Notes: generated from the sequence alone by a model not told the origin. Shown: positions 1 through 44,569, counted from the stretch's first letter. The stretch is DNA of 64,000 nt from Candidatus Nomurabacteria bacterium (GCA_026396065.1 JAPLXO010000003.1:1304-65303); one strand, 5' to 3'. Numbers and translations are program-made.

Positions 1-567
1 CATGAATAATTCCACCGCGGATGCAAAGTCAGCGAGCTGTTTTTTTACGTGTTCTGTATTCTCGGTATCCTCAATGTTCGCAAAGTGCGAATAAATACCA
101 TCAACTTTAATATTGGGCATCTTCGTAAGACGCGCAATGAATTGTGGAATTGAGGAAATTAAAAGACCTTGTCGCCCTAGATTCGCGTCAATCTTAATAT
201 GTATAGGAATTTTTATTTTCTTTTTTTGTCCGATAGCCTGCAGAAGTGCCAGGCGCTCAGTATCACAAATTGTAGGAATTCCTTTTAAGCTAACCAACTC
301 TTCGATGTCGCTTTTTTGAACATAACCAAATACAAGTGTTGGCTTTTTTGAAGCTCTTCTTAATAATCGTAATTCCTCAATATCATCTACCTGGAAATAG
401 TCTGTGTGTGGACTAAGAATTTTTACAACCTCATTCTGCCCGTGTCCGTATGCATTCGCCTTAACAACGCAGGCAATCTTTTTCTTTGGCGCCAGACTTT
501 TAAGCACTTTAAAATTATTTAAAAGTGCCGTTTTTGAGAGCTCAATATATGAGAGAGCTTTTTTCAT
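1..567 (-). CDS. alr: alanine racemase, N-terminal ~189 aa (C-terminus lies beyond window start)
   Basis: Minus-strand translation from ATG (complement of 565-567): MKKALSYIELSKTALLNNFKVLKSLAPKKKIACVVKANAYGHGQ... with PLP-attachment motif VVKANAYGHG. Absent from the ORF track because it runs off the window edge. Confidence 0.75.
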   Translation of the reverse strand, partial: MKKALSYIELSKTALLNNFKVLKSLAPKKKIACVVKANAYGHGQNEVVKILSPHTDYFQVDDIEELRLLRRASKKPTLVFGYVQKSDIEELVSLKGIPTICDTERLALLQAIGQKKKIKIPIHIKIDANLGRQGLLISSIPQFIARLTKMPNIKVDGIYSHFANIEDTENTEHVKKQLADFASAVELFM

Positions 568-762
568 TTATTTAGTATACTCGTGTAATTCATTAATAAT
601 AAAGCCCCGCAAATGCGGAGCTTTATCTATACTAACGATTTCGGAGTTTTGTTTCCTTGCCTGCCTTCTTGGCATGCTTTTTCCTGGCTAGTTTGCGTTT
701 CTTATTCATACGATACGAATAGGATAACACGACTCACCATAATGCGCAAGAATTAGGCTGGA

Positions 763-1323
763 TTACGCTATTGTCGCTATAAGTCTAAGCGCTACATTGA
801 TCTCTTCAATAAACTTGTTCATTGGCTCATCACCCGCTAGCCCAAGTTGCATCCAATGTATGATATCCAAAAACGAGTCGGCTCGATTTTTAGAAAAAGC
901 AGTCATATCTTCATTCGTAAACTCGGAAACTACTTTTTCGCGCTCCGTTGAAAAGGAACAAGCAATATCAACCAGCTGATCACGACCCCACGTACTCTTA
1001 AAGTATTCAGAATTCTTCTCATACTCATCCAGAAGTAGCTCACACGCCCTCTCTACTGACTCATATGCGTCTGACAGGGCTTCTCCGTCAATAACCAAAA
1101 ATGAACCCTCTTTGCACTGTATAATCCGAAGCCAGGTTGATTCACTTTTTATCAATCTTTTAAAAAGCTTCCAGCGATCTTCGGAAATAGCGCTTTTCAC
1201 GCTTTTTACAGCGATTATTTCTGAAATACGAATGCGTGTTTCCACTATCGCATCAATGGGATTCTTACGCTCCTTAAACTCTTCCACGAGTATGCGAATT
1301 ACGTCTGAAGATTTCATCGACAA
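763..1323 (-). CDS. hypothetical protein (186 aa)
   Basis: Long ORF with no recognisable motif. Lies in the module upstream of the R-M cassette. Confidence 0.5.
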   Translation of the reverse strand: MSMKSSDVIRILVEEFKERKNPIDAIVETRIRISEIIAVKSVKSAISEDRWKLFKRLIKSESTWLRIIQCKEGSFLVIDGEALSDAYESVERACELLLDEYEKNSEYFKSTWGRDQLVDIACSFSTEREKVVSEFTNEDMTAFSKNRADSFLDIIHWMQLGLAGDEPMNKFIEEINVALRLIATIA

Positions 1324-1400
1324 TCCTCCTTTTTATATGTTATGTGCTTTTTTTGTTATCGCATGAAGTTGAAAATAAAACAAGCATAAATCTAAATTTA

Positions 1401-1435
1401 TTTTTTATAAAAAGACCCCGAAATATCCGGGGTCT
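1401..1435 (-). terminator. rho-independent terminator for the 1444..2073 gene
   Basis: Hairpin AGACCCCG-aaatatc-CGGGGTCT followed on the minus strand by a T-run. Confidence 0.5.
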
Positions 1436-1443
1436 GAGTTGTA

Positions 1444-2073
1444 TTACCTATCCCTATTTGTAACTGAAAATGCGAGTTCCTCAGCGTCTATCACCTTTTC
1501 AACTGCGAGTGCCGCATTCAGATTCTGTCTTCTTCGCTCAACTATATCTCGAACCGCCTTCCCAAGCTCAAACCAGATTCCTTTCGGTTCGCACTTGGTC
1601 ATACTCATGATTGTTGCGAGATCAGTCTCTTCTATTAAAACAATTTCTGCCTTCTCATACTTACGGTGCCCAGAAACCTTTTGCCCAGAAAAATTAACTG
1701 AGATAAGAACCCACTGCCCCGAACGCGTAAGTCCCCATGAACGAACAACACCATCCAGACAGCAGAATCCTCGCGAAGGTTCGCGGAGGCCACTTCCAGG
1801 GAAGTACTCAATTGCAATACTCGGTTGTGGTTGGAAGATTCCCTGCGTCTTCAGCGAAAAATTTCCATCACTTACTATCTTCGGATTATCTGCATCAATT
1901 TCGTGAAAAAAATCAGCGTTGTGCAGACACTTCAGATGTCCGAGTTCTGGAAGTGTGGATGAATCCAAAAAAGACTTAAGTAGTCCAGCACGAGCTTCTA
2001 AAAGCTCAAACCACTCTTCAAACTCTATCTTATCCTTCCGGACAAATGTCCTTAATCCTTGTAGAGAGGGCAT
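1444..2073 (-). CDS. hypothetical protein (209 aa), GC-richer than genome background
   Basis: ORF with visibly higher GC (~45% by eye) than the ~30% housekeeping genes. No recognisable motif. Confidence 0.5.
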   Translation of the reverse strand: MPSLQGLRTFVRKDKIEFEEWFELLEARAGLLKSFLDSSTLPELGHLKCLHNADFFHEIDADNPKIVSDGNFSLKTQGIFQPQPSIAIEYFPGSGLREPSRGFCCLDGVVRSWGLTRSGQWVLISVNFSGQKVSGHRKYEKAEIVLIEETDLATIMSMTKCEPKGIWFELGKAVRDIVERRRQNLNAALAVEKVIDAEELAFSVTNRDR

Positions 2074-2186
2074 ACCCTCCTCCTTTCGTTGTTAGAGGCT
2101 CACCTCTTAACGCTATTATTCTTATTCAAAGTATTTGGCATGTCAACAAAAAACAACACCAATAAGGTGCTGTTTTTACTAATGCG

Positions 2187-2393
2187 GTGTTTGTTGGACA
2201 AAGTTCGAATGTTTTTCGAGCAAAATCCAAATGATTAAAAATACTAATGCGGACGAGGCAAGGCGAAACTATTTGTCTGGGGGAATGGATTCGCCTTGCC
2301 TCGGCTGTTTTCCCGCCCGCAGGAGGGGTCTGGGGAGGCATGCGGGCGGGATTTCGGCGGGATTCCTTTTTTCGGAAAAATTCGCACGGGCTT
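2187..2393. repeat. 207-bp inverted repeat copy A (left arm bracketing the C-R-M cassette)
   Basis: Reverse complement matches 4622-4828 at ~96%. Contains an 11-bp GC stem (TCCCGCCCGCA...TGCGGGCGGGA). Abuts the MTase stop codon. Confidence 0.85.
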
Positions 2394-3525
2394 AAATCTG
2401 ATTATCAATTTTGAAGTTCTCTAAAATTGCTTTTGCTACTGCATTTGATAAAAATGTTGGAACAGCATTTCCAATTTGTAAATTTCTATCACCCCTAGAA
2501 CCAAAAAATTGATAATCATCGGGGAAGCACTGAATTCTTGCACCCTCTCTTGTCGTTAGTGGTCTTGGTGCTTTTGGATGAATACAACGAGATGATGACG
2601 GGGTGCTAAGATTTCTCGTTATTGTTGTCGCTGGTCGTTTCCACCAAAGACGACAATATGTATTTTTAAAACCTGAGGTTGGGCGTAATTCCTCTGGCAA
2701 ATCTTCTGGCGTTCCACCATCTGGCAATAACTCCATTATTTTTACCAAATTTTCATTATTGTTTGGCGAATTATGATCCATTAGTTTTGTCGGTGCGTTT
2801 TTACGCATAAACTTTTGAAAATCATTTTGTGGTTTAGAAGAATACTCAAAACTTTCTTCGTTTGATTTGATAAAAGGCAAATCGCTTATTGCTTCCTCAA
2901 GTGTTAAATATGGTTTGAGTTTTTTGTTGAACAAATCTGGTTTTTCCTCTGGATTATAATGGGTTGGTTCTGGGTATTCAAAATCAGTTTTAAGTTTTGA
3001 GCCAATAATCACAACCCTCTCCCTTATTTGCGGTGCGCCATAATCGGCGGCATTCAAAAGTCTATATTGAACTTTATATCCTAAAGATTCAAAAAGTGAA
3101 ATAATCGTTTTTAATAATTCGCCACCTTGCATTGATAAAAGACCTTTAACATTTTCAAAAAGAAAAAGTTTTGGATTGAATTCTTTTAGAACACGATAGT
3201 ATTCTTGAAAAAGTTTGCCTCGTGGGTCATCAATCAATCTTTTTCCAACTGTTGAATACGCCTGACATGGTGGTCCTCCAACAATAATATCAATCTCATT
3301 AGGTTTTATATTTAAATCTTTTTCAATTTTTTCAGCGTTAAAATCCTTAATGTCCTCGGCATATACTTTTGCTGTTGGGTGGTTTAATGAATATGCTTTC
3401 GCCATATTTGGCAAAATTTCATTTGCTGCCACTATTTCAAAATTATCATCGTGGGCGAAACCATAGCTTAAACCACCCACGCCTGAAAATAAATCTATTA
3501 CTTTTAGTTTCTTATTTTTACTCAT
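2392..3525 (-). CDS. DNA (cytosine-5)-methyltransferase
   Basis: Motifs FSGVGGLSYGF (motif I), GGPPCQAYS (motif IV), ENV (motif VI) and QIGNAVP (motif X). Confidence 0.9.
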   Translation of the reverse strand: MSKNKKLKVIDLFSGVGGLSYGFAHDDNFEIVAANEILPNMAKAYSLNHPTAKVYAEDIKDFNAEKIEKDLNIKPNEIDIIVGGPPCQAYSTVGKRLIDDPRGKLFQEYYRVLKEFNPKLFLFENVKGLLSMQGGELLKTIISLFESLGYKVQYRLLNAADYGAPQIRERVVIIGSKLKTDFEYPEPTHYNPEEKPDLFNKKLKPYLTLEEAISDLPFIKSNEESFEYSSKPQNDFQKFMRKNAPTKLMDHNSPNNNENLVKIMELLPDGGTPEDLPEELRPTSGFKNTYCRLWWKRPATTITRNLSTPSSSRCIHPKAPRPLTTREGARIQCFPDDYQFFGSRGDRNLQIGNAVPTFLSNAVAKAILENFKIDNQI

Positions 3526-3533
3526 AAAATAAT

Positions 3534-4325
3534 CTAATCAAAATTAATTTCCTTATATTTCATCGGACTTTCTGTAATTTTCCAAATAAAATAATTTTGA
3601 TCAATGTTAAAAACTGTTTGACCTTCCATTTGTTGTCTTGTAATCCAATTTACGCTATCGTCTTCTATTTCATCTAATTTAATAAAGGCAACTTGACCAT
3701 TATATAAATCAAAATGAAGTGCCAAGGTATGATAACCCAAATCACGAAAAACTCTTTTCGCTTCTAAAACTTTGTGTTGTTTAATGTCATTGATTCCCGT
3801 AAAACCTGATTGCATTTCAATTCTAACTTTTTCTTTATCATTGAGTTTAATTTCTAAATCAGCTTTTGGTGTTCTCTTAAAAGTTTCAATATTTTTTAAG
3901 TCGTCGTCGCCAATCAAATCTATACTTGAAGTATCAACTTCAAAAACCAAGCCAAGTGCTTTCAAAAAATAATTTGATAAAACATAACCTCTCATCCAAG
4001 AGTAATAAACTTGCTCTGGTCGTCTGCCTTGATTATTTAAAACTGGCAAAATATTGTTCGCTTTCATAATTTCAAAAGTTCTTTCAATATGTTCTTTTTT
4101 GAAAGCAACAATATCGTCAAGTTTTATTTCTTTGGCGACGACATCATTTATTTTATCAATTATGTTATAAAGTCTTTTGTTTAATAACTCAATGTAATTC
4201 AAATCAACCGTCGGGGTAATGTCTTTTGCCCCAAAAAAGTTTTTGACATCTGCTTGGTTTGAAAAACCAAGTTTTTGTCTGTATTGACGAAAATATTCAG
4301 CTGTAATTGTAATTTGTCTAGGCAT
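3534..4325 (-). CDS. putative type II restriction endonuclease (partner of the adjacent m5C MTase)
   Basis: 263-aa ORF lying between the C gene and the MTase in the same orientation with 4-8 bp spacers. The call rests on operon context only. Confidence 0.5.
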   Translation of the reverse strand: MPRQITITAEYFRQYRQKLGFSNQADVKNFFGAKDITPTVDLNYIELLNKRLYNIIDKINDVVAKEIKLDDIVAFKKEHIERTFEIMKANNILPVLNNQGRRPEQVYYSWMRGYVLSNYFLKALGLVFEVDTSSIDLIGDDDLKNIETFKRTPKADLEIKLNDKEKVRIEMQSGFTGINDIKQHKVLEAKRVFRDLGYHTLALHFDLYNGQVAFIKLDEIEDDSVNWITRQQMEGQTVFNIDQNYFIWKITESPMKYKEINFD

Positions 4326-4329
4326 AATT

Positions 4330-4524
4330 TTATTTTATTAAATCCTCTATTGATACATTTAATGCTTTCGCAATTTTTTTAATTGTATCAATTGTTGGGT
4401 TTTGTTGCTTGCCAGCTTCAATGTTTATTATCGTATTATTGGAAACATCAGCAAGACGAGCCAGCTTTTCTTGCGATAAACCTAATTTTTCCCTTATTCG
4501 TTTAATTTTGCTTGACTCTAACAT
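4330..4524 (-). CDS. XRE-family HTH protein, probable R-M controller (C) protein
   Basis: 64 aa with a helix-turn-helix (LGLSQEKLARLADVSNNTIINIE). It is the first gene of the C-R-M operon. Confidence 0.6.
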   Translation of the reverse strand: MLESSKIKRIREKLGLSQEKLARLADVSNNTIINIEAGKQQNPTIDTIKKIAKALNVSIEDLIK

Positions 4525-4594
4525 ATTGAAATAGTAATATTATATTGTGGTATAATTATTATATGCTCCAACTAAACAACCACAATATAATATT
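4512..4594. promoter_or_regulatory. operator/promoter region upstream of the C gene
   Basis: 15-bp perfect inverted-repeat arms AATATTATATTGTGG (4536-4550) and CCACAATATAATATT (4580-4594). On the + strand: TTGACT-17-TAATAT (4512-4540) and an extended -10 TGGTATAAT (4549-4557). Confidence 0.3.
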
Positions 4595-4621
4595 ACCAAA
4601 ATATTTGTCTTTCGTAAAGGA

Positions 4622-4828
4622 AAGCCCGTGCGAATTTTTCCGAAAAAAGGAATCCCGCCGAAATCCCGCCCGCATTCCTCCCCAGACCCCTCCTGCGGGC
4701 GGGAAAACAGCCGAGGCAGGGCGAATCCAAAACCCCAGACAAATAGTTTCGCCTTGCCTCGTCCGCATTAGTATTTTTAATCATTTGGATTTTGCTCGAA
4801 AAACATTCGAACTTTGTCCAACAAACAC
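4622..4828. repeat. 207-bp inverted repeat copy B (right arm of the C-R-M cassette)
   Basis: Matches the reverse complement of 2187-2393. One nucleotide separates it from the 91-bp repeat. Confidence 0.85.
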
Positions 4829-4829
4829 G

Positions 4830-4920
4830 GCCAAAATTGAAAATCGGAATCGGAAGCCGAAATGGGGTCGGCACGAAGTGCCGACACAAATGTATTCCCC
4901 CCAAAAAATCCTGAATCTGA
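4830..4920. repeat. 91-bp inverted repeat, left arm flanking the serine recombinase gene
   Basis: Exact reverse complement of 6320-6410, verified base by base. The similarity continues imperfectly to ~4935. Confidence 0.9.
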
Positions 4921-4966
4921 AAGGGTTCGCCACGCTCCGCGTGGCTCCTCGTTTGCCAATACAATT

Positions 4967-6421
4967 ATGAATAATCAAACCAAAAAGTTTTTCATTTATA
5001 CTCGCAAGTCTACGGACGACAAAGACAGACAAGTTCGCAGTATTTCTGACCAATTATCGGAATTGAAAAGTTTAGCGTTGAAAGAACAAATTGATGTTGT
5101 TGATGTCTTTGTCGAAAAGCAGACCGCCAAAATACCAGGTCGCCCTGTGTTTAACGAAATGATGTTGAGAATGGAAGCGGGCGAAGCGTCTGGTATTTTG
5201 GCGTGGCATCCCGATAGACTTGCGAGAAATAGTGTTGATGGTGGGAAAATTATTTACCTCGTTGATACTGGCGTAATCGTGGAAATGAAATTCCCAACTT
5301 TTTGGTTTGATCCGACGCCGCAAGGCAAATTCATGCTCTCAATCGCTTTTTCGCAATCCAAGTATTATGTGGACAATTTGAGCGAGAATATCAAGCGAGG
5401 TCATCGCAACAAAGTGAAAGACGGGATATGGCCTCAAATGGCTCCGCTTGGATATGTAAACAAAAACAGAATGATTGTTCCCGATGAAAATATCGCACCA
5501 CTTATCAAGAAAACATTTGAGGCATATTCAACTGGGTCTTTCACTTTGCGACAACTCCGCGACAAATTTAATGAACTTGGATTGAAACGAAAAAGCGGAA
5601 AGGAACTTGCGGTGTCGAATTATCAAAAACTTTTGAAAAATCCGATATACACGGGCTTGATGTTGTATAACGGCGAAATCCACGAAGGTAAGCACGAGCC
5701 GATTATCATAAAGAAACTTTTTGATTCCGTTCAGGAAGTGATGATGAGAAAATCTAAACCTCACTCGAAAGGTCTAAAACCATTTTTGTATAGAGGATTT
5801 TTCCGTTGTGGAGAATGCGGTTGCTTCATTACTACCGAAACACAAAAGGGTCATAACTATTTGCGATGTACCAAACGGAAAAATCCTTGTTCACAAAAAT
5901 ATACGCGTGAGGAAATCATCACTTCCGAAATTCAAAAAGAAATCAAAAAAGTTTCTTTGCCAGACGATTGGGCTAAATGGATGTTGGCGGAAAACGAAAA
6001 AGACAAATTAGTGGAAGCCCAATCGTCTACGCTTTTTGCCGACAAAACAAAAGCCGATATTTCTCTTTTGGATTCTAAAATTGAGAAGCTGATGAACGCA
6101 TATTTAGAAAACGCACTTTCACTAGACGAGTATCGAGATATGAAAAACAAACTTGTGAATGAAAAACAGCTTCTCAAAGAGAAATTATCGGCTTTTGAGC
6201 AAAAAGCGAATAATCGGTTCGAACTTACCGAAAAGTTTTTGAAATACAATATAGAATTGGCAAACGAGGGAATAAATGAAGAGAAACTTCATTTATTCAA
6301 AAAAGTCGGTTCGAACTTTTCAGATTCAGGATTTTTTGGGGGGAATACATTTGTGTCGGCACTTCGTGCCGACCCCATTTCGGCTTCCGATTCCGATTTT
6401 CAATTTTGGCGGAGGCGGTGA
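4967..6421 (+). CDS. large serine recombinase (resolvase/invertase catalytic domain, recombinase domain, zinc ribbon and coiled coil)
   Basis: FFIYTRKSTDDKDRQVRSISDQ (catalytic Ser region). Cys cluster CGECGCF...C..RKNPC. Coiled-coil C-terminal region. The ORF track opens at 4862 inside the repeat; ATG at 4967 (MNNQTKK) is the more plausible start. The stop overlaps the tRNA 3' end. Confidence 0.85.
   Translation: MNNQTKKFFIYTRKSTDDKDRQVRSISDQLSELKSLALKEQIDVVDVFVEKQTAKIPGRPVFNEMMLRMEAGEASGILAWHPDRLARNSVDGGKIIYLVDTGVIVEMKFPTFWFDPTPQGKFMLSIAFSQSKYYVDNLSENIKRGHRNKVKDGIWPQMAPLGYVNKNRMIVPDENIAPLIKKTFEAYSTGSFTLRQLRDKFNELGLKRKSGKELAVSNYQKLLKNPIYTGLMLYNGEIHEGKHEPIIIKKLFDSVQEVMMRKSKPHSKGLKPFLYRGFFRCGECGCFITTETQKGHNYLRCTKRKNPCSQKYTREEIITSEIQKEIKKVSLPDDWAKWMLAENEKDKLVEAQSSTLFADKTKADISLLDSKIEKLMNAYLENALSLDEYRDMKNKLVNEKQLLKEKLSAFEQKANNRFELTEKFLKYNIELANEGINEEKLHLFKKVGSNFSDSGFFGGNTFVSALRADPISASDSDFQFWRRR
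6320..6410. repeat. 91-bp inverted repeat, right arm
   Basis: Reverse complement of 4830-4920. It encodes the last ~30 aa of the recombinase ORF and ends in TGGC, which is the complement of the tRNA discriminator and CCA. Confidence 0.9.
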
Positions 6422-6496
6422 GATTCGAACTCACGGACCCCGTAAAGAGTCTCTTGTTTTCAAGACAAGTGCCTTCAACCACTCAGCCACGCCTCC
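6407..6496 (-). tRNA. tRNA-Ser(TGA)
   Basis: Sequence GGAGGCGTGGCTGAGTGGTTGAAGGCACTTGTCTTGAAAACAAG...GTGAGTTCGAATCTCACCGCCTCCGCCA. Long variable arm, anticodon loop cTTGAAa, G73, encoded CCA. Confidence 0.85.
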
Positions 6497-6690
6497 TCCG
6501 CATTTCATGCGTCGTCGGCGTGGCTTCGTGTCCTCCGGACACTCCCTATATCTTCGTGATAAATCACATCAGATATTTCTGCTAAAGCAGAAACGGATTA
6601 AACATGAAGCAGTTCATGTTTAATAGCACACGCCTCCATACACTCAATTACATTACCAAAAAATGCATTTTTATGCTAGTCTTTTGGTGT

Positions 6691-7137
6691 ATGAGACTTC
6701 TTGGTATAGATTATGGAATGAAAAGAATAGGAGTGGCTATTTCTGACGAAGGAGGCACTTTGGCATTTCCAAAAGAAATTATTGCCAATGGACAAAAACT
6801 TAACCCACTAAAAAGAATAGGAGAAATAATAAAACAAGAGAAAATTTCTGAAATTGTCGTCGGTGAATCGGTGGATTTTTCTGGTAGTTTAAATATGCTA
6901 ATGGCGCATATTGAGCTTTTTATTGGAGAGCTTGAAAACGAATTTCATTTGCCAGTACACAAACAAAAAGAATTCTTGACATCCGTCGAAGCAAGGCGTT
7001 CCAAAGACGGCAAAAAAGATGCCAGCCCTTCTCAAGCTCGAAGTCGACTCAAAAGTACAAAAGCTGGCAGGGTAGATGCTTCAGCTGCAGCACTTATTTT
7101 ACAAAGATATTTAGACAAGATTAATCAAGCAAAATAA
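6691..7137 (+). CDS. ruvX: Holliday junction resolvase-like protein RuvX/YqgF
   Basis: MRLLGIDYGMKRIGVAISDE... RNase H-like N-terminus. The C-terminus has a DASAAALILQRYL signature. The ORF track opens at 6604; ATG at 6691 is the preferred start. Confidence 0.8.
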   Translation: MRLLGIDYGMKRIGVAISDEGGTLAFPKEIIANGQKLNPLKRIGEIIKQEKISEIVVGESVDFSGSLNMLMAHIELFIGELENEFHLPVHKQKEFLTSVEARRSKDGKKDASPSQARSRLKSTKAGRVDASAAALILQRYLDKINQAK

Positions 7138-7163
7138 TTTTTTAAAACAGGTATAATTTATTT

Positions 7164-8822
7164 ATGGAATCTGAAACAAGAAATTGTAAATATTGTAAAA
7201 CTCAATTTGAAATAACAGAGAGGGAAATGAGTATGTACGAGAAAATCAATCTAATGATTCCTGATATCTGCGTACCATGTCGCTGGAAACAACACATGGC
7301 TTTTTGGCCATTCGGAAAATTCCGAACTGGTGTGAGTGATTTGTCTGGAGAAAGATTGATTACTGTTTTGCCGGCCAATGCACGCTACCCAATTTATACT
7401 TCCAAAGAATGGTGGAGTGACGCTTGGGATGCGATGACCCACGGACAAGATTATGATTCAAGCCGTTCATTTTTTGATCAATTAAAAGAATTACAAGAAA
7501 AAGTTCCTCGTCCACATCAACAAGGTGCACAAAGTTTAAATTGCGATTGGTGTGATGATGCTTGGGAATCTAAAAATTGTTACTTGAGTCGTTCTACATT
7601 AAGAGCTGAAAATCTTTTCTATGGATATCGTTCTATAGATTGTAAAGACTCGATAGATGTTTCTCATGTTTTTACACTTGACCAGTGTTACGACTGCACT
7701 TATTGCTTCACTTCATATAATTTATTTTTTTCAAAAAATTGTCGAGACTGTCTTGATAGCGCTTTTTTATTTGATTGTCGAAATTCAAACCACTGTTTTA
7801 TGTGTTGGAATCTTCGAGGAAAATCATACTGCATAGAAAATGTTCAATATACAAAAGAAGCTTATGAAGAAAAAATGAAAGAAATAAATTTTGGTTCTAA
7901 TATTGAACTTCAAAAATACAAAGATAGATATGAAGAAATTTTAAGAAAAAATGTAGTGCATCGAGAAAATTTTAATATAAAAACTTATGATTCTCTGGGA
8001 ACATATATGACGAATTGCAAAAATTGTGTAAATGTATTTTCTTGGGAAGATTCTGAAAATTGTACCAATTGTTTGCGTGGTTTGAAGTCAAAAGATTCTA
8101 TTGATATGGTTGGTTGTTGGAATATGGAATTATCCGGTAATGATAGTTGTTGTACAAACGCTTATGATTTAAAATATTCTATTTGGTGTGATGGTGCTAG
8201 ATATTCTGAATATTGTGATCAATGCGTTGAAATAGAAAATTGTTTTGGTTGTGTCAGTCTTCGTAAGAAAAAATATTGTATTTTAAATAAACAATATAGT
8301 AAAGAAGAATACGAAGTTTTGAAAGAAAAAATTATTTCAGATATGAAAGAGCGAGGTGAATACGGACAATTTCCTCCGTATTCAATGGGTCTTTGCCCAT
8401 ATAATTTTTCTACTTCAGCAATTTATTCTCCAGACGTTACAAAAGAATACGTAGAGGCGTTGAGAGGATATTGGGAAGATAATAAAGATGAAAAAATAGA
8501 AGGATTAACTACAGAACAAATTCCAGATTCAATTACAGAAGTGGATGAATCATTTTCAAAGCAAGCACTCATTTGTCCTATTACTGGTTGGAGGTACAAC
8601 ATTGCCGAAGGGGAGCTCGCATTCTTGAAAAGAAAAAATATTTCAATCCCTCGTGTACATTTTGATGTGCGAACTAAAAATCGTTTATCTATTCTCAGTC
8701 AAACAAAAAGTGAAGCATATACTTGCACTTATTGTTCAAAAAATATTATTGCTTATTATCCAAAAGATTGGGGTTATGAATATATTGCTTGTGAGCACTG
8801 TTATTTAAAAGAGATTGCTTAG
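7164..8822 (+). CDS. cysteine-rich repeat protein of unknown function (552 aa)
   Basis: Dozens of Cys arranged in recurring NCxxC / CxxC...YC..N.QYSKEEYE units. No family recognised. Confidence 0.6.
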   Translation: MESETRNCKYCKTQFEITEREMSMYEKINLMIPDICVPCRWKQHMAFWPFGKFRTGVSDLSGERLITVLPANARYPIYTSKEWWSDAWDAMTHGQDYDSSRSFFDQLKELQEKVPRPHQQGAQSLNCDWCDDAWESKNCYLSRSTLRAENLFYGYRSIDCKDSIDVSHVFTLDQCYDCTYCFTSYNLFFSKNCRDCLDSAFLFDCRNSNHCFMCWNLRGKSYCIENVQYTKEAYEEKMKEINFGSNIELQKYKDRYEEILRKNVVHRENFNIKTYDSLGTYMTNCKNCVNVFSWEDSENCTNCLRGLKSKDSIDMVGCWNMELSGNDSCCTNAYDLKYSIWCDGARYSEYCDQCVEIENCFGCVSLRKKKYCILNKQYSKEEYEVLKEKIISDMKERGEYGQFPPYSMGLCPYNFSTSAIYSPDVTKEYVEALRGYWEDNKDEKIEGLTTEQIPDSITEVDESFSKQALICPITGWRYNIAEGELAFLKRKNISIPRVHFDVRTKNRLSILSQTKSEAYTCTYCSKNIIAYYPKDWGYEYIACEHCYLKEIA

Positions 8823-8834
8823 TTATGATATAAT

Positions 8835-9209
8835 GTGCAAATGATATCTTTTGAAGATTTTAAAAAAGTTGATATGGCAGTAGGGCAGATTTTGTCTGCT
8901 GAAAAAGTGCCCGAGACGGACAAGCTTTTAAAGTTGTCTGTAGATTTTGGTTCTGTTTTTACAGAAAATGCAGAAGGATTGAAAGAAGAAAAAAAAGATA
9001 TTCGTCAAATTGTTTCCGGCATCTCACTTTATTTTCCTGACCATTCTGTATTAGTCGGCAAGAAATGTATGTTTGTCACAAATCTCGAACCACGCATGAT
9101 AAAAGGCCTCGAAAGTCAGGGGATGATACTCGCCGTTTCTACAGAAGATGGAAAGTTTTCTCTACTTGAACCTAATAATGATATTCCTATTGGAACAAGA
9201 GCTAAATAA
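8835..9209 (+). CDS. tRNA-binding domain protein (CsaA/Trbp111/MetG C-terminal-domain-like)
   Basis: ISFEDFKKVDMAVGQILSAEKVPETDKLLKLSVDFG... typical EMAP/Myf fold signature. Confidence 0.7.
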   Translation: MQMISFEDFKKVDMAVGQILSAEKVPETDKLLKLSVDFGSVFTENAEGLKEEKKDIRQIVSGISLYFPDHSVLVGKKCMFVTNLEPRMIKGLESQGMILAVSTEDGKFSLLEPNNDIPIGTRAK

Positions 9210-9215
9210 ATAGAG

Positions 9216-9809
9216 ATGGAATTTCTTCAAATTACACCACTTATAACCACCTTCGGATTGATCGGAATTTTTACGATAGTATTCGCGGAGTCCGGCTTAT
9301 TTTTCGGTTTTCTTTTGCCGGGGGATTCATTACTAGTCACTGCTGGAATTTTTGCCTCGGCAGGACATTTCAATATAGTAGTATTATTACTTGGTACGTT
9401 TATTTTTGCAGTCCTCGGAGATAGTGTAGGCTATTGGACAGGAAAGAAATTTGGACAGAAAATATTTTCACGACCAAATTCATTTTTCTTTAATAAAAAG
9501 AATCTGGATAAAACAAAAGAGTTTTATGAAAAATACGGAAAGAAAACGGTCACATTGGCTCGTTTTGTACCGATGATACGTACGTTTGCACCGATTATGG
9601 CAGGTACAGCGAATATGCCGTATAAAGATTTTTTATTTTATAATATTTTAGGTGGATTTTTATGGACTGGCAGTATGATCATGATAGGTTACTTTTTAGG
9701 TAATAGTATTGAAAATATCGATGGGTATATTTTTCCAATTACAATATTCATAATAGGTCTTTCTGTTGTTCCGGTAGTTATTGGACTAATTCGAAAGAAA
9801 AAACAATAA
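9216..9809 (+). CDS. DedA family membrane protein
   Basis: GDSLLVTAGIFA...LARFVPMIRTFAPIMAGTANMPYKDF motif. Confidence 0.8.
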   Translation: MEFLQITPLITTFGLIGIFTIVFAESGLFFGFLLPGDSLLVTAGIFASAGHFNIVVLLLGTFIFAVLGDSVGYWTGKKFGQKIFSRPNSFFFNKKNLDKTKEFYEKYGKKTVTLARFVPMIRTFAPIMAGTANMPYKDFLFYNILGGFLWTGSMIMIGYFLGNSIENIDGYIFPITIFIIGLSVVPVVIGLIRKKKQ

Positions 9810-9861
9810 TTTGTTGATATTGCATTTTTAAAAAATATCATTTCGGGGTACAATATATATA

Positions 9862-10944
9862 ATGCTTCGCGCTAAATATAATAAATTTTTCCCAATACCA
9901 CATTTTTTATCTCAACCATCTTTTGGTTTAGATATTTCTGATCAATCTATTAAGTTTGTAGAATTTTTAGAAACTCATAAAGGTCTTCGTATTGGTCGCT
10001 TTGGTGAGCGTCCTATTCCAGTAGGTGTGATTGAGTCAGGAAAAATTATAGAATCAAAGCATTTAAAAGAAATTTTATTATTACTTAAAAAAGAATATGG
10101 AATAAAATCTGTGCGCGTGTCTTTACCAGAAGAACAAGTTTATCTTTTTAAATTAAAAATTATTAAAGAATCCACTGTTGATATTCGTCAAACAATCGAA
10201 TTCTCTTTAGAGGAGCACGTTCCTATACCTCCTACTGATTTAGTATTTGATTACGAAATTTTTAAAGAAGATGAAAAAAACATTGAAGTAGAGGTTACTA
10301 CTGCACCAAAACAAATTATTGAAAGCTACCTTTCTATTTTTAGAGATTGCGGACTAAATGTTTCTTCTTTTGAGCTTGAAGCGCAAGCTCTAGCCAGAGC
10401 AGTCATTTTAGATAAAGATTTAGATACTTACATGATAGTTGATTTAGGAAAACAGCGTACTGGTATATCTGTCGTTAGTAATAATATTGTTATTTTTACT
10501 TCCACTGTTGATGCGGGTGGGGTAATGCTTACAAATCTTATTGAAAAAAATTTTAAGATTAGTTTTTTAGATGCAGAAAATATGAAAGTAAAATATGGCC
10601 TTAGTCGAAGTTCAGGGAACCAAGAAGTTTTCTCTGTTCTTTTGAACGGTGTATCTATTATTCGTGATGAAATTAGTAAACATTTTTTATATTGGCATAC
10701 TCATAAAGATGAAGATGGAGAAGTAAGGCCAAAAATAAAAAAAATAATTCTGTGCGGTGGTGATTCAAATTTGATTGGTTTTGCGGAGTATCTCTCTATT
10801 AGTATGAAACAAAATGTAGAGATTGCTAATGTCTGGCGAAATGTTATTTCGCCAGATGAGTATATTCCAGAGATGTCTTTTCAGGATTCCTTGAGTTATG
10901 CTACAGCAATAGGATTAGCATTAAGAGATTTATATTATGATTAA
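9862..10944 (+). CDS. pilM: type IV pilus assembly ATPase-like protein PilM
   Basis: N-terminal FGLDISDQSIKFVEF (actin-like fold), ~360 aa, followed by pilN/pilO-like genes. Confidence 0.75.
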   Translation: MLRAKYNKFFPIPHFLSQPSFGLDISDQSIKFVEFLETHKGLRIGRFGERPIPVGVIESGKIIESKHLKEILLLLKKEYGIKSVRVSLPEEQVYLFKLKIIKESTVDIRQTIEFSLEEHVPIPPTDLVFDYEIFKEDEKNIEVEVTTAPKQIIESYLSIFRDCGLNVSSFELEAQALARAVILDKDLDTYMIVDLGKQRTGISVVSNNIVIFTSTVDAGGVMLTNLIEKNFKISFLDAENMKVKYGLSRSSGNQEVFSVLLNGVSIIRDEISKHFLYWHTHKDEDGEVRPKIKKIILCGGDSNLIGFAEYLSISMKQNVEIANVWRNVISPDEYIPEMSFQDSLSYATAIGLALRDLYYD

Positions 10945-11479
10945 TTTATTACCATTAGAAGAAAAAGATAAAATTTCTACAGAGTATATTTTTCGCATTG
11001 TCTCTTTTTATTTTTATGTATTTGGAACGTGTTTTTTTGTTGCTAGTATTACTTTACTTCCAGCTTACTTTTTTTCGTCTGTTAGAGAGAATTTAGCAAT
11101 TGAAAAATTACAAAATTTAAAAGATTTGCCAGTTACAGAATTAGATCATGAGACAAATAATGCTATACAAGATGTTAATTCAAAAGTCTCCATAATTGAA
11201 AATGCTGAAAAAAATAAATTTCTAGTTTTAGAAAATATGATAAATGAAATCATTTTTAAAAAAATGACAGATATAAAAATAATGCAATTTGATTACAAAA
11301 AAGATAAAGATGGTTTAAAAACATTAAATTTACATGGTTTGGCCCCAAATCGCGAACGTTTGCTTTTGTTTAGACAAACACTTGAATCAGATAAAATGTT
11401 TTCACATATAGATCTTCCAATTTCAAACTTTGTTAAAGGTGCGAATATAGATTTTAGTTTAAATTTAACATTTTTGTAA
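10937..11479 (+). CDS. pilN: PilN-like pilus assembly protein
   Basis: Starts MINLLP, then a single TM helix. Overlaps the pilM stop by 8 nt. Confidence 0.55.
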   Translation: MINLLPLEEKDKISTEYIFRIVSFYFYVFGTCFFVASITLLPAYFFSSVRENLAIEKLQNLKDLPVTELDHETNNAIQDVNSKVSIIENAEKNKFLVLENMINEIIFKKMTDIKIMQFDYKKDKDGLKTLNLHGLAPNRERLLLFRQTLESDKMFSHIDLPISNFVKGANIDFSLNLTFL

Positions 11480-29115: not shown

Positions 29116-30288
29116 ATGAAAGATACACAAATAAAAAAACTAATACAATTAGAGGGGAAGAGACAAAAGAGCGTCATAAACCTAATTGCTTCGGAGAATT
29201 ATGTTTCCAAAGATGTTTTGGAAGCTCTCGGTTCAGTACTTACAAATAAATACGCAGAAGGGTACCCAGGCCGTCGATATTACGGCGGAAATGAAATTAT
29301 CGATAAAGTTGAAAGTTTGGCAATTGCTCGAGCTTTAAAACTTTTCAAATTAAAAACTGACGCATGGCATGTGAATGTTCAGCTCCTTTCAGGAAGTCCA
29401 GCGAATTTTGCATTATATTCTGCTTTAATTCCACTTGGTGGAAAAATAATGGGAATGAAATTATCTTCTGGGGGGCACCTTACTCATGGTTATCCACTTT
29501 CGATGACAGGAAAACTTTGGAAATCTGTTCAATACGAAGTCGATCCGAAAATGGAAGTGATAGATTATTCTGCTGTTGAAAAATTGGCACTGCAAGAAAA
29601 ACCAGATATTATTGTTTGTGGTTATACTGCTTATCCACGAACTGTGGACTTCAAAAAATTCCGAGTGATTGCTGATAAATGCGGAGCACTGCTTCACGTA
29701 GACATGTCGCATTTCGCAGGGCTCGTCGCAGGGGGAGTATACCCATCTCCATTTCTATATGCCGACAGTGTGATGACGACAACTCACAAATCTCTACGTG
29801 GTCCGAGACAAGCGATTCTCTTTGTAAAAAAAGACGAGAGAGGATTCGACAAGAAACTCGACAAGATGGTTATTCCTGGACTCTTTGGTGGACCGCATGA
29901 AAATAATATTGCTGGAGTTGCGATTGCACTCAAAGAAGCCGACACTCCAGCCTTTAAAAAATATGCAAAACAAGTTGTAAAAAACGCACAAACACTTTCA
30001 AAAGAATTACAAAAACTTGGTTGGAAAATTATTTCTGGCGGTACCGATTCACATTTGATATTAATGGAAACTTTTCTATCAGGGGGAATTTCTGGCGCTG
30101 AAGCTAGTAAAAAACTCGAGAAAGCTGGGATTATTGTAAACATGAATACTGTCCCAGGGGACACACGAGGTGTGATGGATCCATCTGGTATTCGACTAGG
30201 CACTTGCGCAGAGACAACAATAGGGAAAAAAGAAAAAGATATGATTAAGATTGCACAAAAGATGAACAAGGTCTTAAGAAGGAAATAA
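29116..30288 (+). CDS. glyA: serine hydroxymethyltransferase
   Basis: LIASENYVSKDVLEALGS...YPGRRYYGG; PLP-Lys region TTTHKSLRGPR. Confidence 0.9.
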   Translation: MKDTQIKKLIQLEGKRQKSVINLIASENYVSKDVLEALGSVLTNKYAEGYPGRRYYGGNEIIDKVESLAIARALKLFKLKTDAWHVNVQLLSGSPANFALYSALIPLGGKIMGMKLSSGGHLTHGYPLSMTGKLWKSVQYEVDPKMEVIDYSAVEKLALQEKPDIIVCGYTAYPRTVDFKKFRVIADKCGALLHVDMSHFAGLVAGGVYPSPFLYADSVMTTTHKSLRGPRQAILFVKKDERGFDKKLDKMVIPGLFGGPHENNIAGVAIALKEADTPAFKKYAKQVVKNAQTLSKELQKLGWKIISGGTDSHLILMETFLSGGISGAEASKKLEKAGIIVNMNTVPGDTRGVMDPSGIRLGTCAETTIGKKEKDMIKIAQKMNKVLRRK

Positions 30289-36225: not shown

Positions 36226-36264
36226 ACACCTCACCCCAACCCTCTCCTTATTAAGGAGAGTGGG
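36226..36264. repeat. GC-rich palindromic mini-element, intergenic copy
   Basis: ACACCTCACCCCAACCCTCTCCTTAttAAGGAGAGtGGG. Its first 25 nt are identical to the copy at 42444. Confidence 0.8.
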
Positions 36265-39726: not shown

Positions 39727-42700
39727 ATGGAAGAAAAAAAAGATACAACTAAATCAGAAATAGCACTTCGCGAAGAAGCGGTTTTGGCTTTTTGGCGAGA
39801 AAATAAAACATTTGAAAAATCTTTAGAAAAAGAATCTCCAAAAGGAAATTATGTTTTTTATGATGGTCCACCATTTGCGACAGGGCAGATGCACTACGGG
39901 CATATTTTAGGTTCGACTGCGAAAGATGTCATCGGTCGCTATCAAACTATGCGCGGATACCATGTTCCACGAAAATGGGGCTGGGATTGTCATGGTTTGC
40001 CTATTGAAAACATTGTAGAAAAAGAACTCGGAATAGCAGGACATAAAGAAATTGAAAAATATGGAATAGAAAAGTTTATTGAGTATGCACGAAGTAAAGT
40101 TTTGCAATATGAAGATGATTGGGAATCTGGTGTAGAGCGTATCGGTCGCTGGGTGGATTTTCGTGGTGGCTACAAGACGATGGATAATAATTTTATCGAA
40201 TCAGTGTGGTGGGCGCTTTCAGAATTTTATAAAAAAGGTTTAGTTTATGAAGGTGTGCGCGTACTGGCGTATTGCGCCCGCTGTGAGACACCAATAGCGA
40301 ATTCCGAAATCGCGATGGATAACAGTTATAAAGATATTTCTGATCTTTCAGTATATGTGAAATTTGAATTAGTAGACGAACCAAATACATATTTACTCGC
40401 GTGGACTACTACACCTTGGACTTTGCCAGGGAATACTGCTATCGCGATAAATAAAGATATTGATTATGTAAAAGTAAGACTTACAGAGGATGCTCAAATC
40501 CAAAAAGCTGGAACAGGTACTTATAATGTTTATACTCCTGAATTTTTAATTTTAGCTAAAGTTCTTGTTGAGAAAGTTTTAAAGGATAAAATATTTGAAG
40601 TTGTTGAAGAATATAAAGGTGAAAAATTAGTCGGAAAATCATACAAACCAATTTTTAAATATTATGAAAATGTTGAAATGCCAAATAAAGAAAATATTTG
40701 GAAAGTTTGGCATGCAGATTTCGTAACGACAGAAAAGGGAACAGGTATCGCACACCAAGCCCCAGCTTTCGGAGAAGAAGACTTCGTCTTGGCAAAAGAA
40801 AATAACGTACCATTTATTATTCACGTGAATAATACTGGCAAATTCGTAGATCAAGTTTCTGATATGGCAGGGCTAGCAGTAAAACCAAAAGACACAGCTG
40901 AAGACAAAGACGCGCACATGCGCACAGACATAGAAGTCATCAGAAAACTCCAAGAAAACGGAGCATTTTTTGCGAAAGAAAAAATACTGCACTCATACCC
41001 GCACTGTATGCGTTGTGATACTCCTATTATTTATTATGCTTTGCCATCTTGGTTTATCAATATCACGAAAGTAAAATCAGATATTGCAAAAAGTGCCGAA
41101 GAAATGAATTGGATTCCAGCGCACCTAAAAGATGGAAGATTTAAAAATATTTTAGAATCTGCCCCTGATTGGAATATCTCTCGCAATCGTTATTGGGCTT
41201 CGCCTCTTCCTGTTTGGAAATGCACGAAGTGTAAAGAAATGAAATTTATTTCTTCACTTGAAGATTTGAAAAAGCATACAAAAAAATCTGGAAATAAATA
41301 TTTTGTAATGCGTCATGGTGAGACAGAGGCAAATAAAAAAGGAATAATCTGTTCTATGCCTTCTGGTAAGTGGCATTTGGATGAAGATGGAATAAGGCAA
41401 GTCGAAAATGCAGGTGAGAATATGAAAGATAAGAAAATCGACTTGATATTTGTATCTGATTTTACTCGTACACAAGAAACAGCTGAAATAATGAGGTTAA
41501 AACTCGGCTTGGAAAAAGAGAGTGTAATAGTAGAGAAAAGGCTTCGTGAAATAGGCGCGTATTCTTTTGATGGAAAAGTTTGGGATGAATATCACGCATT
41601 TCATACAAAGACAGTAGAGAATTTCAACAAGCGCGTGAATGATGATGAATCGTACGAAGATGTGAAAGTTCGTATGACAGCATTCCTATATGAAATAGAA
41701 GAAAAATATAAAGGTAAAAATATTTTATTTGTCACTCACGGTGGGCCAGCTTGGCTTTTGACGGCAGGATCTATGGGTAATGATGTAAAAGAAACCTTGG
41801 CAATGATTTTAGATGTTAAGGATTATCATTATTTCCAAAATGCGGAAATAAAAGAATTGGATTTTACTCCTATCTCACACAATGCAAAATTTGAACTTGA
41901 TTTTCATCGACCATATATCGACAATATAAATCTCATTTGTGAGTGTGGTGAAGAAATGAAAAGAATCCCAGAAGTGCTGGATTGCTGGTTTGAATCTGGT
42001 TCTATGCCTTTCGCTCAAGATCATTTTCCTTTTGACCCCGAAGGAAAGATTACTTCCTACGGGGCAGGAAATTCAGACTGGGAAAAGAACAACTTTCCTG
42101 CAGGATTCGTGGCTGAATATATCGCTCAGACTAGAACATGGTTCAACTACACTCTCACAGTTTCTTCTGTTTTATTTGGTCATGCACCTTTTAAAAATGT
42201 CGTGACGACTGGAACTGTGCGCGCAGAAGATGGAGAAAAAATGTCTAAATCGAAAAATAATTTCCCTAATCCAAAGACTTTATTTGATAAGTATGGTGTG
42301 GATGCACTTCGTATGTATTTGATGTCTGGTCCACTAATGAAAGGGGAAGATGCGAATTTCGTAGAAAAACTCGTACAAGAAATATCTAGTAAAATAGTCG
42401 GCCGACTTGAAAACGTTGTTGCCTTTTATGAATTGTATAAAGACACCTCACCCCAACCCTCTCCTTATAAAGGAGAGGGAGCTAAAAACGTGCTTGATGT
42501 ATGGATTCTTTCTCGACTTGCACAAGTGATGGAAGAAGTGACTCTTGGTATGGAAGCTTATGATATGGCTTCGGCTACAAAACCTTTTGATTTATTTATC
42601 GATGACCTTTCTACTTGGTATCTCCGTCGTTCCCGTGACAGAATGAAAGAAGAGGCAAGCAACCCCGAAGGAAAGAGTACTTCCTACGGGGCAAGAACGA

Positions 42701-43530: not shown

Positions 43531-44112
43531 ATGAAAAAATTTAAACTTGTATTGGTAATTGTTGCAATAGTTGCTTCAATTATCGCGAATGTTGTGTATG
43601 TACCTGAAGTTCGCATCCTTTGCTTTATTTTCGAATACTTCGCACTCGGTTTTTTACTTCTGCAAATTATCGCAGAGGAAAGTGGAATTGAAGTTATGAA
43701 ATTACCTGATTCTGAAACAGGCGAAACGATTTCAAAAGACTTCTTGAACTCGGGTTATTACTACGAGGGCATAGATGGCTTTTGGAAAAGTTTAGCAAAA
43801 CTTCTTCCCATTTTTCCTAAGGAAATTCTTCTTCAACAAATCAACGAAGGAGTAAAAACTGAAGAACAAATGATGGATGGCAGGAATTGGTTGTCGAGAA
43901 AGGAAGCTATGAGTTTCGGAGCACAAAATGTTAAAAGCGGTGAGTACAAAGACGGAAAGGTACGTATTTACTTCTTTAAAGACGAAGAAAACAAAGGTCA
44001 GCGCTCTGAGCTCTGCGTTTGTTTGGATGGTGACAGTCCGGACGTGGACGTGGGCAAGTTCAATCCAGAGAACCGGTGGCGCAATGGCCGCATCTCGTAT
44101 TCTCGCAAATAG
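43531..44112 (+). CDS. DGR target protein: small membrane-anchored protein with a C-terminal variable region
   Basis: N-terminal TM helices. The last ~37 codons (43996-44107) form the VR paired with the TR at 44458-44569. Confidence 0.7.
   Translation: MKKFKLVLVIVAIVASIIANVVYVPEVRILCFIFEYFALGFLLLQIIAEESGIEVMKLPDSETGETISKDFLNSGYYYEGIDGFWKSLAKLLPIFPKEILLQQINEGVKTEEQMMDGRNWLSRKEAMSFGAQNVKSGEYKDGKVRIYFFKDEENKGQRSELCVCLDGDSPDVDVGKFNPENRWRNGRISYSRK
43996..44107 (+). repeat. DGR variable repeat (VR)
   Basis: 112-bp alignment with the TR. About 20 mismatches, every one at a position where the TR has A (the VR has G or C). Confidence 0.85.
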
Positions 44113-44175: not shown

Positions 44176-44457
44176 TTTTTATTTTTTAAAATGTTAGAAT
44201 ATATACAGAACAGTGCGGTAATTTTCGGCAGTGTCCAATATTCTAATTAGAATACAAGCTTCTTGAAATACATTGTTTCGATTTTAATACGGTCAGAATT
44301 GTGTCGGCGAATTTTTATTTTCTTACACAAGAGCACGATATTATTTTCCATTAAAAAAATATTTATTGGTGATACTACTAGTGAGCTTCGATGCTCCAAA
44401 TAATATTCAAAAGTTTATGATTTAAACTTTGGTGGCACAGATGGTCGTATCACAGAA

Positions 44458-44569
44458 GGTCAGCGCTCTAAACTCTACGTTTATTTGAATGGTGACAATC
44501 CGAACGTGAACGTGAACAAGTTCAATCCAGAGAACAAGTGGAACAATGGCAACATCTCGTATTCTCGAA
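44458..44569 (+). repeat. DGR template repeat (TR), non-coding
   Basis: Rich in AAC/AAT codons when read in the VR frame (GQRSKLYVYLNGDNPNVNVNKFNPENKWNNGNISYSRN). No ORF covers it. Confidence 0.85.

Follow-up and report, generated by a model that had tools for sequence, protein, structure and literature searches.

Evidence for a two-module large serine recombinase element with duplicated inverted arms at tRNA-Ser genes of Patescibacteria

We analyzed a 64,000-nt stretch of DNA from a Candidatus Nomurabacteria bacterium (GCA_026396065.1 JAPLXO010000003.1:1304-65303; hereafter, the window), in which a restriction-modification (R-M) cassette is enclosed by a pair of 210-bp inverted repeats. These repeats are very probably the cassette arms of an element that carries a large serine recombinase (LSR) and is integrated at a tRNA-Ser gene. 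The unit spans positions 2184-6410 (4.2 kb), is located exactly at the 3' end of the tRNA-Ser gene, and is arranged as flank, A-cargo-A', B-LSR-B' and tRNA-Ser, where A/A' and B/B' denote two abutting pairs of inverted arms. For the whole explanation, namely a two-module LSR integrative element with duplicated arms, we estimate a probability of roughly 0.6. Such an element would represent an architectural variant of the serine-integrase island, widespread in the Candidate Phyla Radiation (CPR; Patescibacteria), in which integration is well grounded and a role for the duplicated arms can be inferred. CPR bacteria have tiny genomes with few recognised mobile elements; one LSR family carries R-M and other defence cassettes to tRNA-Ser genes across CPR lineages, which points to a main route of gene flow.

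Two inverted-repeat modules beside tRNA-Ser

The A/A' repeat occupies positions 2184-2393 and 4622-4831, with arms of 210 nt that are 97% complementary and 2228 nt between them. These values slightly extend the original prediction, made from the sequence of the window, which had placed the copies at 2187-2393 and 4622-4828 with ~96% identity. The 11-bp GC stem and the direct motifs that it described in each arm were also recovered: the stem (TCCCGCCCGCA...TGCGGGCGGGA, with a 19-nt loop) forms hairpins at 2311-2351 and, mirrored, at 4664-4704, and AATCCCGCC direct motifs are seen in the A arms by sequence inspection. Two copies of this 41-nt GC hairpin occur in the window, compared with zero expected from a shuffled window. 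The arms are non-coding, with no transposase open reading frame (ORF) and no match resembling an insertion sequence (IS), and mirrored ORFs within them correspond to the spurious ORFs that had been ascribed to the repeats. An Rfam scan of positions 1-8000 at E values up to 1 returned tRNA only and nothing within the arms. The features of the element are as follows.

2184-2393, plus strand: A arm, from its outer to its inner end; left junction with the host flank (attR-like), with the core GCGG at 2184-2187
2311-2351, mirrored at 4664-4704, no strand: GC-rich hairpin in A, invariant among subtype-a arms (12 elements)
2348-2366, plus strand: terminator-like hairpin and T-run facing into the cassette, mirrored at 4649-4667 on the minus strand
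2392-3525, minus strand: C-5 cytosine DNA methyltransferase (cargo), matching PF00145 over its full length (E = 8e-79) and TIGR00675 above its cut-off
3534-4325, minus strand: candidate restriction endonuclease of 263 aa (cargo), by position and homologue names
4330-4524, minus strand: HTH_3 controller (C) protein of 64 aa (cargo), by an HTH_3 match and the PADLOC 'control protein' model (E = 5e-13)
4534-4551 and 4579-4596, no strand: candidate C-box-like operator that precedes the C gene; 18-nt inverted repeat without mismatches, its halves 27 nt apart
4622-4831, plus strand: A' arm, from its inner to its outer end, the inverted copy of A found by repeat search
4780-4880, no strand: junction J2, where the outer ends of the A and B arms (A-out and B-out) meet; a complete attP-like site, inverted relative to both end junctions, with its core at 4828-4831
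4830-4922, plus strand: B arm, from its outer to its inner end, upstream of the recombinase gene and containing a hairpin at 4867-4885
4967-6421, plus strand: LSR of 484 aa with Resolvase, Recombinase and Zn-ribbon domains
6318-6410, plus strand: B' arm, from its inner to its outer end, matching B perfectly in inverted orientation; attL-like right junction, at the tRNA; encodes the C-terminal tail of the LSR
6407-6496, minus strand: tRNA-Ser(TGA), the integration target, whose CCA and downstream sequence come from the element

Three cargo genes lie between A and A', all on the minus strand, encoding a 5-methylcytosine methyltransferase, the 263-aa ORF and the controller. The repeats had been said to bracket a controller, an endonuclease and a methyltransferase; the first and last are supported by profile matches, and the endonuclease remains a candidate that is named after its homologues. 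No Pfam, PADLOC or NCBIfam profile matched the 263-aa ORF. More than 1000 homologues were found, mostly from Patescibacteria; several of them are named restriction endonuclease by NCBI, and the same methyltransferase usually comes after them. The candidate had no match in the plasmid collection. The 18-nt inverted repeat upstream of the C gene is the likely C-box operator of the cassette, as judged from its sequence and position.

The second inverted repeat, B/B' (4830-4922 and 6318-6410; 93 nt, 100% complementary), starts where A' ends and brackets the LSR gene, and the far end of B' coincides with the 3' end of tRNA-Ser(TGA). The region formed by A' and B showed a folding z-score of -4.4. 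In the LSR, residues 9-154 match the catalytic domain PF00239 (E = 2e-18), and the motif YTRKSTDD is present in the translation; the C-terminal part matches PF07508 (E = 2e-13) and PF13408 (E = 4e-7), with cysteine pairs visible. No match to PDB was obtained at 1e-5. The R-M unit had been predicted to be mobile, possibly with the adjacent serine recombinase as partner. It does belong to a mobile element, and the LSR is the recombinase of that element; the mobile unit is 2184-6410 rather than 2187-4828, the second repeat pair and the tRNA-Ser target had been missed, and the enzyme is of the integrase type, not an invertase of the Hin/Gin type. We propose that the element would consist of module C (A, methyltransferase, endonuclease candidate, controller and A') and module R (B-LSR-B').

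Attachment sites and the empty site

We compared the three junctions of the element, each read towards the junction, which is marked here by a slash.

tRNA side: ...GGTTCGAATCC-N-CTCC-CCGC / CAAAATTG...
J2 (A'/B): ...ATTCGAAC-N-ACACA-CCGC / CAAAATTG...
Far end of the cargo module: ...ACACA-CCGC / variable host sequence

The distance from TTCGAA to CCGC is 16 nt in A-out, compared with 11 nt in tRNA-Ser, and this 5-nt offset was constant across the listed loci, as well as in a subfamily with 42% LSR identity that uses another tRNA. In the attB sites of serine integrases, the motif of the zinc-ribbon domain is 5 bp nearer to the centre than it is in their attP sites (PMC3783163). Because the TTCGAA offset fits this rule, we read the junction of A-out and B-out as attP, the 3' end of tRNA-Ser together with its downstream sequence as attB, and the ends of the element as attL and attR. 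The outer ~45 nt of the A arm would then be an attP-type half-site that resembles the 3' end of the tRNA, and J2 would be a complete inverted attP retained in the integrated element. The hybrid junctions have CCGC in common with the empty site, and the crossover would fall somewhere within these four bases, with no finer placement from the sequence. A palindromic crossover dinucleotide (CG or GC), which would free the orientation of the reaction, was also considered; the presence of CCGC in all junctions, and of CCAC in the distant subfamily, speaks neither for nor against it.

Comparison of related strains, which had been suggested as a check on the presence or absence of the cassette, revealed the empty site. 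Five contigs from near-identical strains (L003, L004, L006, L007 and L008) are 99.9-100% identical to positions 1-2187 of the window and then continue directly into tRNA-Ser(GCT). The homology breaks at CCGC, four bases found both where arm A ends on its outer side and at the 3' end of the tRNA. In a further strain (L005), arm A is present at the same point, and the 209-aa protein encoded to the left of the element (1444-2073) is unchanged in contigs from several samples. The element is accordingly polymorphic for presence or absence among strains at the tRNA 3' end, and no target-site duplication was found at its junctions.

The left and right flanks of the window belong to different organisms, and for this reason they do not form one empty site. 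The left flank (1-2187; 40% GC) belongs to the organism of contigs L003-L009, which has its empty site at tRNA-Ser(GCT); its contigs have 41% GC and match the flank at 99.9% identity. To the right of position 6411, the DNA is 34% GC, carries a different tRNA-Ser, and has its own serine hydroxymethyltransferase gene (29130-30194), which is 63% identical to that of the first organism. The window is therefore probably a chimeric join between two organisms inside an element that they share. The element sequence itself recurs in other assemblies: the Logan contig L001 comprises the R-M segment and extends 30 nt into an A arm at each end, and the 4343-bp ENA contig L118 contains a complete element between a tRNA-Ser and a flank of its own, with C-R-M cargo that agrees with that of the window in kind and orientation, at 87% identity to the copy in the window.

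Conservation of the element and exchange of its cargo

We scanned genome contigs for relatives of the LSR, taking one genome per species, and analyzed the best 80 loci of the 224 relatives found. Neither the LSR of the window nor a protein from its right flank had an exact match on record, so the collection does not include the genome of the window itself. The LSR homologues at these loci show 77-94% amino-acid identity, and up to 10 kb of flank was taken on each side; both flanks were available for 59 copies, which we regard as assessable. More broadly, LSR homologues number in the thousands, and the best 120, at 83-95% identity, are spread over many lineages of Patescibacteria. The family includes members from Paceibacteria, Saccharibacteria, Uhrbacteria, Shapirobacteria, Levyibacteria and others (77-95% protein identity). 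A B repeat of at least 50 nt was present in 57 out of 59 assessable copies (median 120 nt, 100% identical), and in 46 the repeat reached 80 nt or more with an identity of 95% or higher. A convergent tRNA-Ser gene starts at the end of the 3' arm in 46 of the 59, and the targets include each of the four common tRNA-Ser isoacceptors. In addition, at least 20 loci contain an A pair (90-270 nt) that adjoins B and surrounds 1.2-6.4 kb of cargo. The subfamily with 42% LSR identity also has the same two-module design at its different tRNA. We searched the accessible literature for a two-module inverted-repeat LSR architecture and found no description of it.

These data bear on the possibility that the repeats, or the whole arrangement, arose by mis-assembly of metagenome reads. 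The flanks of the window come from different organisms, and many contigs break at the arms, both of which speak for such an origin. However, the same architecture is found in dozens of assemblies made independently of one another, and two of these are single-contig chromosomes (OZ246398.1 and OY969413.1); the arms are 97% rather than 100% identical; and L001 and L118 independently confirm both arm-cargo junctions. We consider mis-assembly of the element to be extremely improbable, and the two-module arrangement is neither chance nor an assembly artefact.

The end of the LSR gene is also conserved in an unusual form. The LSR ORF extends across B' and the att core, which encodes the ending ...FWR, and its stop codon is taken from the tRNA flank. 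The LSR frame is open from residue 448 to the end of the element in 71 out of 71 B' arms (L010-L089 and the window), compared with 23 and 76 stops in the other two frames (28 arm subtypes), and the stop codon lies within the flanking tRNA in 57 of the 59 loci. Because the stop codon is outside the element, the tail of the LSR protein depends on the location of the element. Across a hypothetical circle junction, the frame would reach a stop after ~19 codons. No relatives were found in the IMG/VR viral contigs, and for this reason we do not regard the LSR as a prophage integrase.

Several loci depart from a single element at a single tRNA. Tandem arrays of elements were found at L090, L076 and L063. 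The array at L090 (positions 1-11400; JGI Ga0247844_1000646), which contains the closest LSR relative (95% identity), consists of two elements at tRNA-Ser(CGA), in the order EcoRI-type C-R-M cassette, recombinase, 4.8-kb Type I/IIG-like R-M cassette and a second 1.5-kb repeat-flanked module. At L025, L054 and L105, the LSR module stands alone between two convergent tRNA-Ser genes, without a cargo cassette; this arrangement could be a trace left by recombination between J2 and another tRNA-Ser, with a chromosomal inversion or a cassette exchange as the outcome. Subtypes of the A and B arms combine freely among loci, and hybrid B arms occur in about six of the 59.

The cargo varies widely and often has to do with defence. 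R-M systems of Type II include HpaII, DpnII and EcoRI types, together with D12 and N4/N6 methyltransferases; other defence-related genes encode ThsB-TIR, AriA-like ATPases, HerA and PDC-S06; and the cargo also includes D-Ala-D-Ala ligase (Ddl), EamA and TspO. The commonest item is a small helix-turn-helix gene of the controller type beside the recombinase-proximal arm; of about 33 cargo modules, at least 10 encode a small helix-turn-helix protein, as does that of the window, and it matches R-M controllers. The R-M system of the window is ordinary cargo of this family. Its endonuclease-methyltransferase pair, at 91-94% identity, is also encoded without controller or arms at L112 (4936-7931) and L114 (1-9933), in a tyrosine-integrase island and on a TrfA/ParA plasmid-like contig, respectively.

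The arms themselves are shared between elements with unrelated cargo. The arm type of the window is 80-93% identical over 170-205 nt to the arms of eleven other elements carrying unrelated cargo, with invariant hairpins. Arms within an element are 97-100% alike, compared with ~90% between elements, which suggests that gene conversion acts within each pair of arms. Throughout the 80 loci, A-type sequence occurs only as a pair that bounds cargo beside the recombinase module. This distribution is relevant to the earlier proposal of a composite element resembling a miniature inverted-repeat transposable element (MITE), in which the 210-bp units would be dispersed non-autonomous copies that mobilise the R-M genes. 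The units are structured and hairpin-rich, and their length is typical of MITEs. However, only two copies are present in the 64 kb of the window, no copy was found away from a recombinase module in the 80 loci with their flanks of up to 10 kb, and neither IS copies, a transposase nor a target-site duplication accompanies them. Moreover, their outer ends are LSR junctions at tRNA-Ser. We therefore abandoned this proposal, to which we give hardly any credence.

The clearest case of cargo exchange involves L041 and L045. Over 2326 nt, their cargo interiors show 1 difference and lie in opposite orientation, whereas the outer 124 nt of their arms show ~18 differences each and their R modules differ by 17%. 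The breakpoints of the inversion fall inside the arms, 125-200 nt from their ends, at or inside the GC hairpin and away from the LSR core. To judge from these sequences, a cassette has recently been exchanged between different elements and has ended flipped, and the simplest reading is that homologous recombination took place where the arms are conserved. The same process would explain the hybrid B arms. Similarly, L018 and L022 resemble each other more closely in cargo and arms than in recombinase.

An inversion of this type recalls another part of the original prediction, according to which the segment might be invertible by recombination. In its strongest form, a serine invertase would flip the 2.2-kb segment between the 210-bp repeats as a programmed switch of restriction-modification on and off. 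Inverted repeats do bracket the cassette beside a serine recombinase, and one cargo does occur in both orientations across two genomes, inverted via its arms. However, the segment contains the full operon with its controller and operator-like repeat, and the arms interrupt neither a coding sequence nor a promoter; because the whole operon, with C-box and promoter region, lies inside, flipping changes no junction. The LSR has Recombinase and Zn-ribbon domains rather than the ~190-aa architecture of invertases, and its half-sites lie at the outer ends of the arms and combine with the second pair of repeats into integration junctions at the tRNA. Furthermore, the L041/L045 breakpoints avoid the LSR core, and two independent copies of the R-M cassette (window and L118) share one orientation. 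No copy of the R-M cargo in the opposite orientation was found among the closest endonuclease homologues, which lie in unrelated contexts except for one in the same-oriented element of L118. The part of the prediction that stands is inversion via the arms; a programmed switch is very improbable.

Proposed mechanism and comparison with known systems

Following the established model of serine integrases, we propose that the LSR would join a circular form of the element to the tRNA. In this scheme, attP would be formed by A-out and B-out, and attB by the T-arm and the 3' strand of the acceptor of tRNA-Ser with a loosely constrained downstream half; A-out would provide a P-type half-site, and the crossover would occur inside the shared CCGC. 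Because each arm is duplicated in inverted orientation, the integrated element would keep a full inverted attP (J2) between its modules. As a consequence of the alternating orientation of the sites, recombination between neighbours, whether by the LSR or by RecA, would flip a module and could not delete it, and deletion between sites of the same orientation would always remove recombinase and cargo together. The long arms would serve as symmetric, portable cassette boundaries with hairpins and inward terminator-like structures. They would allow cargo to pass from one element to another in either orientation, most probably through homologous recombination inside the arms, and gene conversion would keep the two copies of each arm identical. 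The tandem arrays, the free mixing of arm subtypes and the LSR modules between two tRNA-Ser genes (L025, L054 and L105) fit this grammar of sites. The roles proposed here for the duplicated arms and J2 are tentative, and we hold them with less than even confidence.

Another possibility is that the element is an ordinary LSR island in which the inverted duplication plays no part in what the recombinase does. The arms would then provide only RecA homology, by which cassettes are swapped in natural transformation, and transcriptional insulation, or they would be a frozen accident that gene conversion keeps homogeneous. The breakpoints of cargo exchange inside the arms, the resemblance of the hybrid B arms to products of homologous recombination between elements, the terminator-like hairpins and the greater similarity of arms within elements than between them are all consistent with this. 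On the other hand, the boundary of the duplication falls exactly on the att core, so that J2 is a precise and complete attP, and this precision is kept in the subfamily with 42% LSR identity at a different tRNA. The LSR modules between convergent tRNA-Ser genes are also the expected product of J2 recombining with a second attB. We consider an ordinary island unlikely, though worth keeping in view.

Several observations weigh against the two-module element as we propose it. The J2 of the window carries a C to G change at position 4828, seen at no other locus, that gives the core GGCC instead of CGCC (ACAC-G-GCC, compared with ACAC-C-GCC at both end junctions and at ~60 other loci); this may be a mutation that disables J2, or an assembly error. 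The two flanks of the window, as described above, come from different organisms. In our scheme, the circular form, the dinucleotide at the crossover and the direction in which the reaction runs are deduced. Canonical serine integrases cannot excise without a directionality factor, and none was evident in the loci analyzed, where module R contains the recombinase only and the cargo is variable. The tandem arrays imply pairings that canonical enzymes refuse, namely attP with attL or attR. L041 and L045 are short-read assemblies in which arms of ~200 nt exceed the typical read length, and their opposite orientation is possibly a choice of the assembler. Cargo genes are directed away from the LSR in about 25 of 33 modules. 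Finally, the benefit of the inverted duplication is argued from logic, and the duplication could be a frozen accident kept by gene conversion.

The orientation of module R is a further difficulty. Despite the perfect B repeats, the 3' end of the LSR gene faces the tRNA in every standard element that could be read, and the free flipping that our scheme would allow for this module was not seen. A flipped LSR module, with the tRNA joined to the 5'-side arm, was absent among the copies with a readable far side (L025, L054 and L105), which have a tRNA on both sides. A search for a tRNA at the 5' arm matched L025, L054, L057 and 13 metagenome contigs, and most of the remaining contigs among these break inside the module.

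An additional idea is that J2 and the stop-less LSR ORF form a self-contained directionality device. LSR dimers bound at J2 would offer free P-type coiled-coils that unlock self-inhibited attL and attR, replacing a directionality factor, and the C-terminus of the LSR would change with the state of integration, its last codons and stop straddling the att core. The exact placement of J2, the open frame in all 71 B' arms, the tandem arrays and the LSR modules between two tRNA-Ser genes are compatible with such a device, which we nonetheless regard as improbable. If it existed, one protein would integrate, excise, stack arrays and reassort modules, which would explain the spread of the element in CPR.

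Comparison with known systems places the element among LSR elements and phage modules such as Bxb1, phiC31 and A118/LI and LSR islands at tRNA genes (e.g. some tycheposons). It has in common with these the enzyme architecture, a specific host site (here the tRNA 3' end), the half-site motif displaced by 5 bp and a small cargo island. Unlike them, each attP arm is duplicated in inverted orientation, an intact inverted attP lies inside the integrated element, and the recombinase gene and the cargo each lie between near-perfect inverted repeats of 93-270 nt. It further differs in having no evident directionality factor, an LSR ORF that crosses the att core without a stop of its own, and no representatives in IMG/VR.

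Staphylococcal cassette chromosome (SCC) elements (CcrAB/CcrC) are likewise LSR-driven cassettes at the 3' end of a conserved gene, with variable cargo and tandem or composite arrays, and a further possible likeness is that their enzyme integrates and excises without a separate factor. CcrB was among the best NCBIfam matches to the LSR, far below the cut-off. The present elements differ from SCC in their target (tRNA-Ser, not rlmH), in their single recombinase gene instead of two, in their size (4-8 kb), and in having long inverted arms around each module where SCC has short direct or inverted boundary repeats.

The serine invertases (Hin, Gin, Cin and Pin/PinQ) also have a serine recombinase gene beside a segment bounded by inverted repeats. 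However, they are ~190 aa long with a C-terminal helix-turn-helix, cross over in repeats of 26-34 bp, use an enhancer and switch expression, none of which applies to the 484-aa LSR. Integrons and engineered cassette exchange at inverted att sites (e.g. MiMIC) resemble the element in that a recombinase gene lies beside exchangeable cassettes, promoter-poor or self-contained, with structured repeats, and inverted att sites in that a cassette can be taken in either orientation without deletion. Integrons use a tyrosine recombinase and single-stranded attC hairpins, whereas the exchange breakpoints here lie inside 200-nt arms and look homologous.

In phages with integration-dependent immunity, attP lies inside a gene and integration alters the C-terminus of the encoded protein. 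The element is similar in that the att core lies inside an ORF, here the 3' end of the LSR gene, whose tail depends on the state of integration; it differs in recombinase class, and there was no sign that the LSR tail regulates anything.

Two abutting inverted-repeat modules, a retained inverted attP and an LSR ORF that ends in host DNA form an unusual trio, and this design raises the question of how a serine integrase handles direction and cargo exchange without a helper protein. In practical terms, the family is a source of compact LSRs for which attP/attB pairs are predicted and whose target is universally conserved. Metagenome assemblies break at the repeats and can be mis-joined there, as has probably happened in the window.

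Further sites and repeats were observed. A divergent pair of tRNA-Ser genes in the window (53865-53951, minus strand, and 54014-54103, plus strand) shows synteny with the other organism's empty site. Each of the two genes contains TTCGAA followed by 11 nt and CCGC and is an unoccupied candidate attachment site. ARAGORN assigned the unusual anticodon ACT to the tRNA at 53865-53951, and made the same call for the tRNA-Ser targets in L025 and L089. In three loci (L026 at ~11500, L074 at ~3577 and L024 at ~820), an arm abuts non-tRNA sequence (GGGTACTTAACTCGAGTAGC/CCGCC and similar), and sequences of the GGGTACTTAACTCGAGTAGC type may be an alternative attachment site. Two direct repeats elsewhere in the window are unrelated to the element: one of 35 nt with hairpin potential (36226-36260 and 42443-42477; 97% identical) and one of 115 nt (43994-44108 and 44456-44570; 85% identical).

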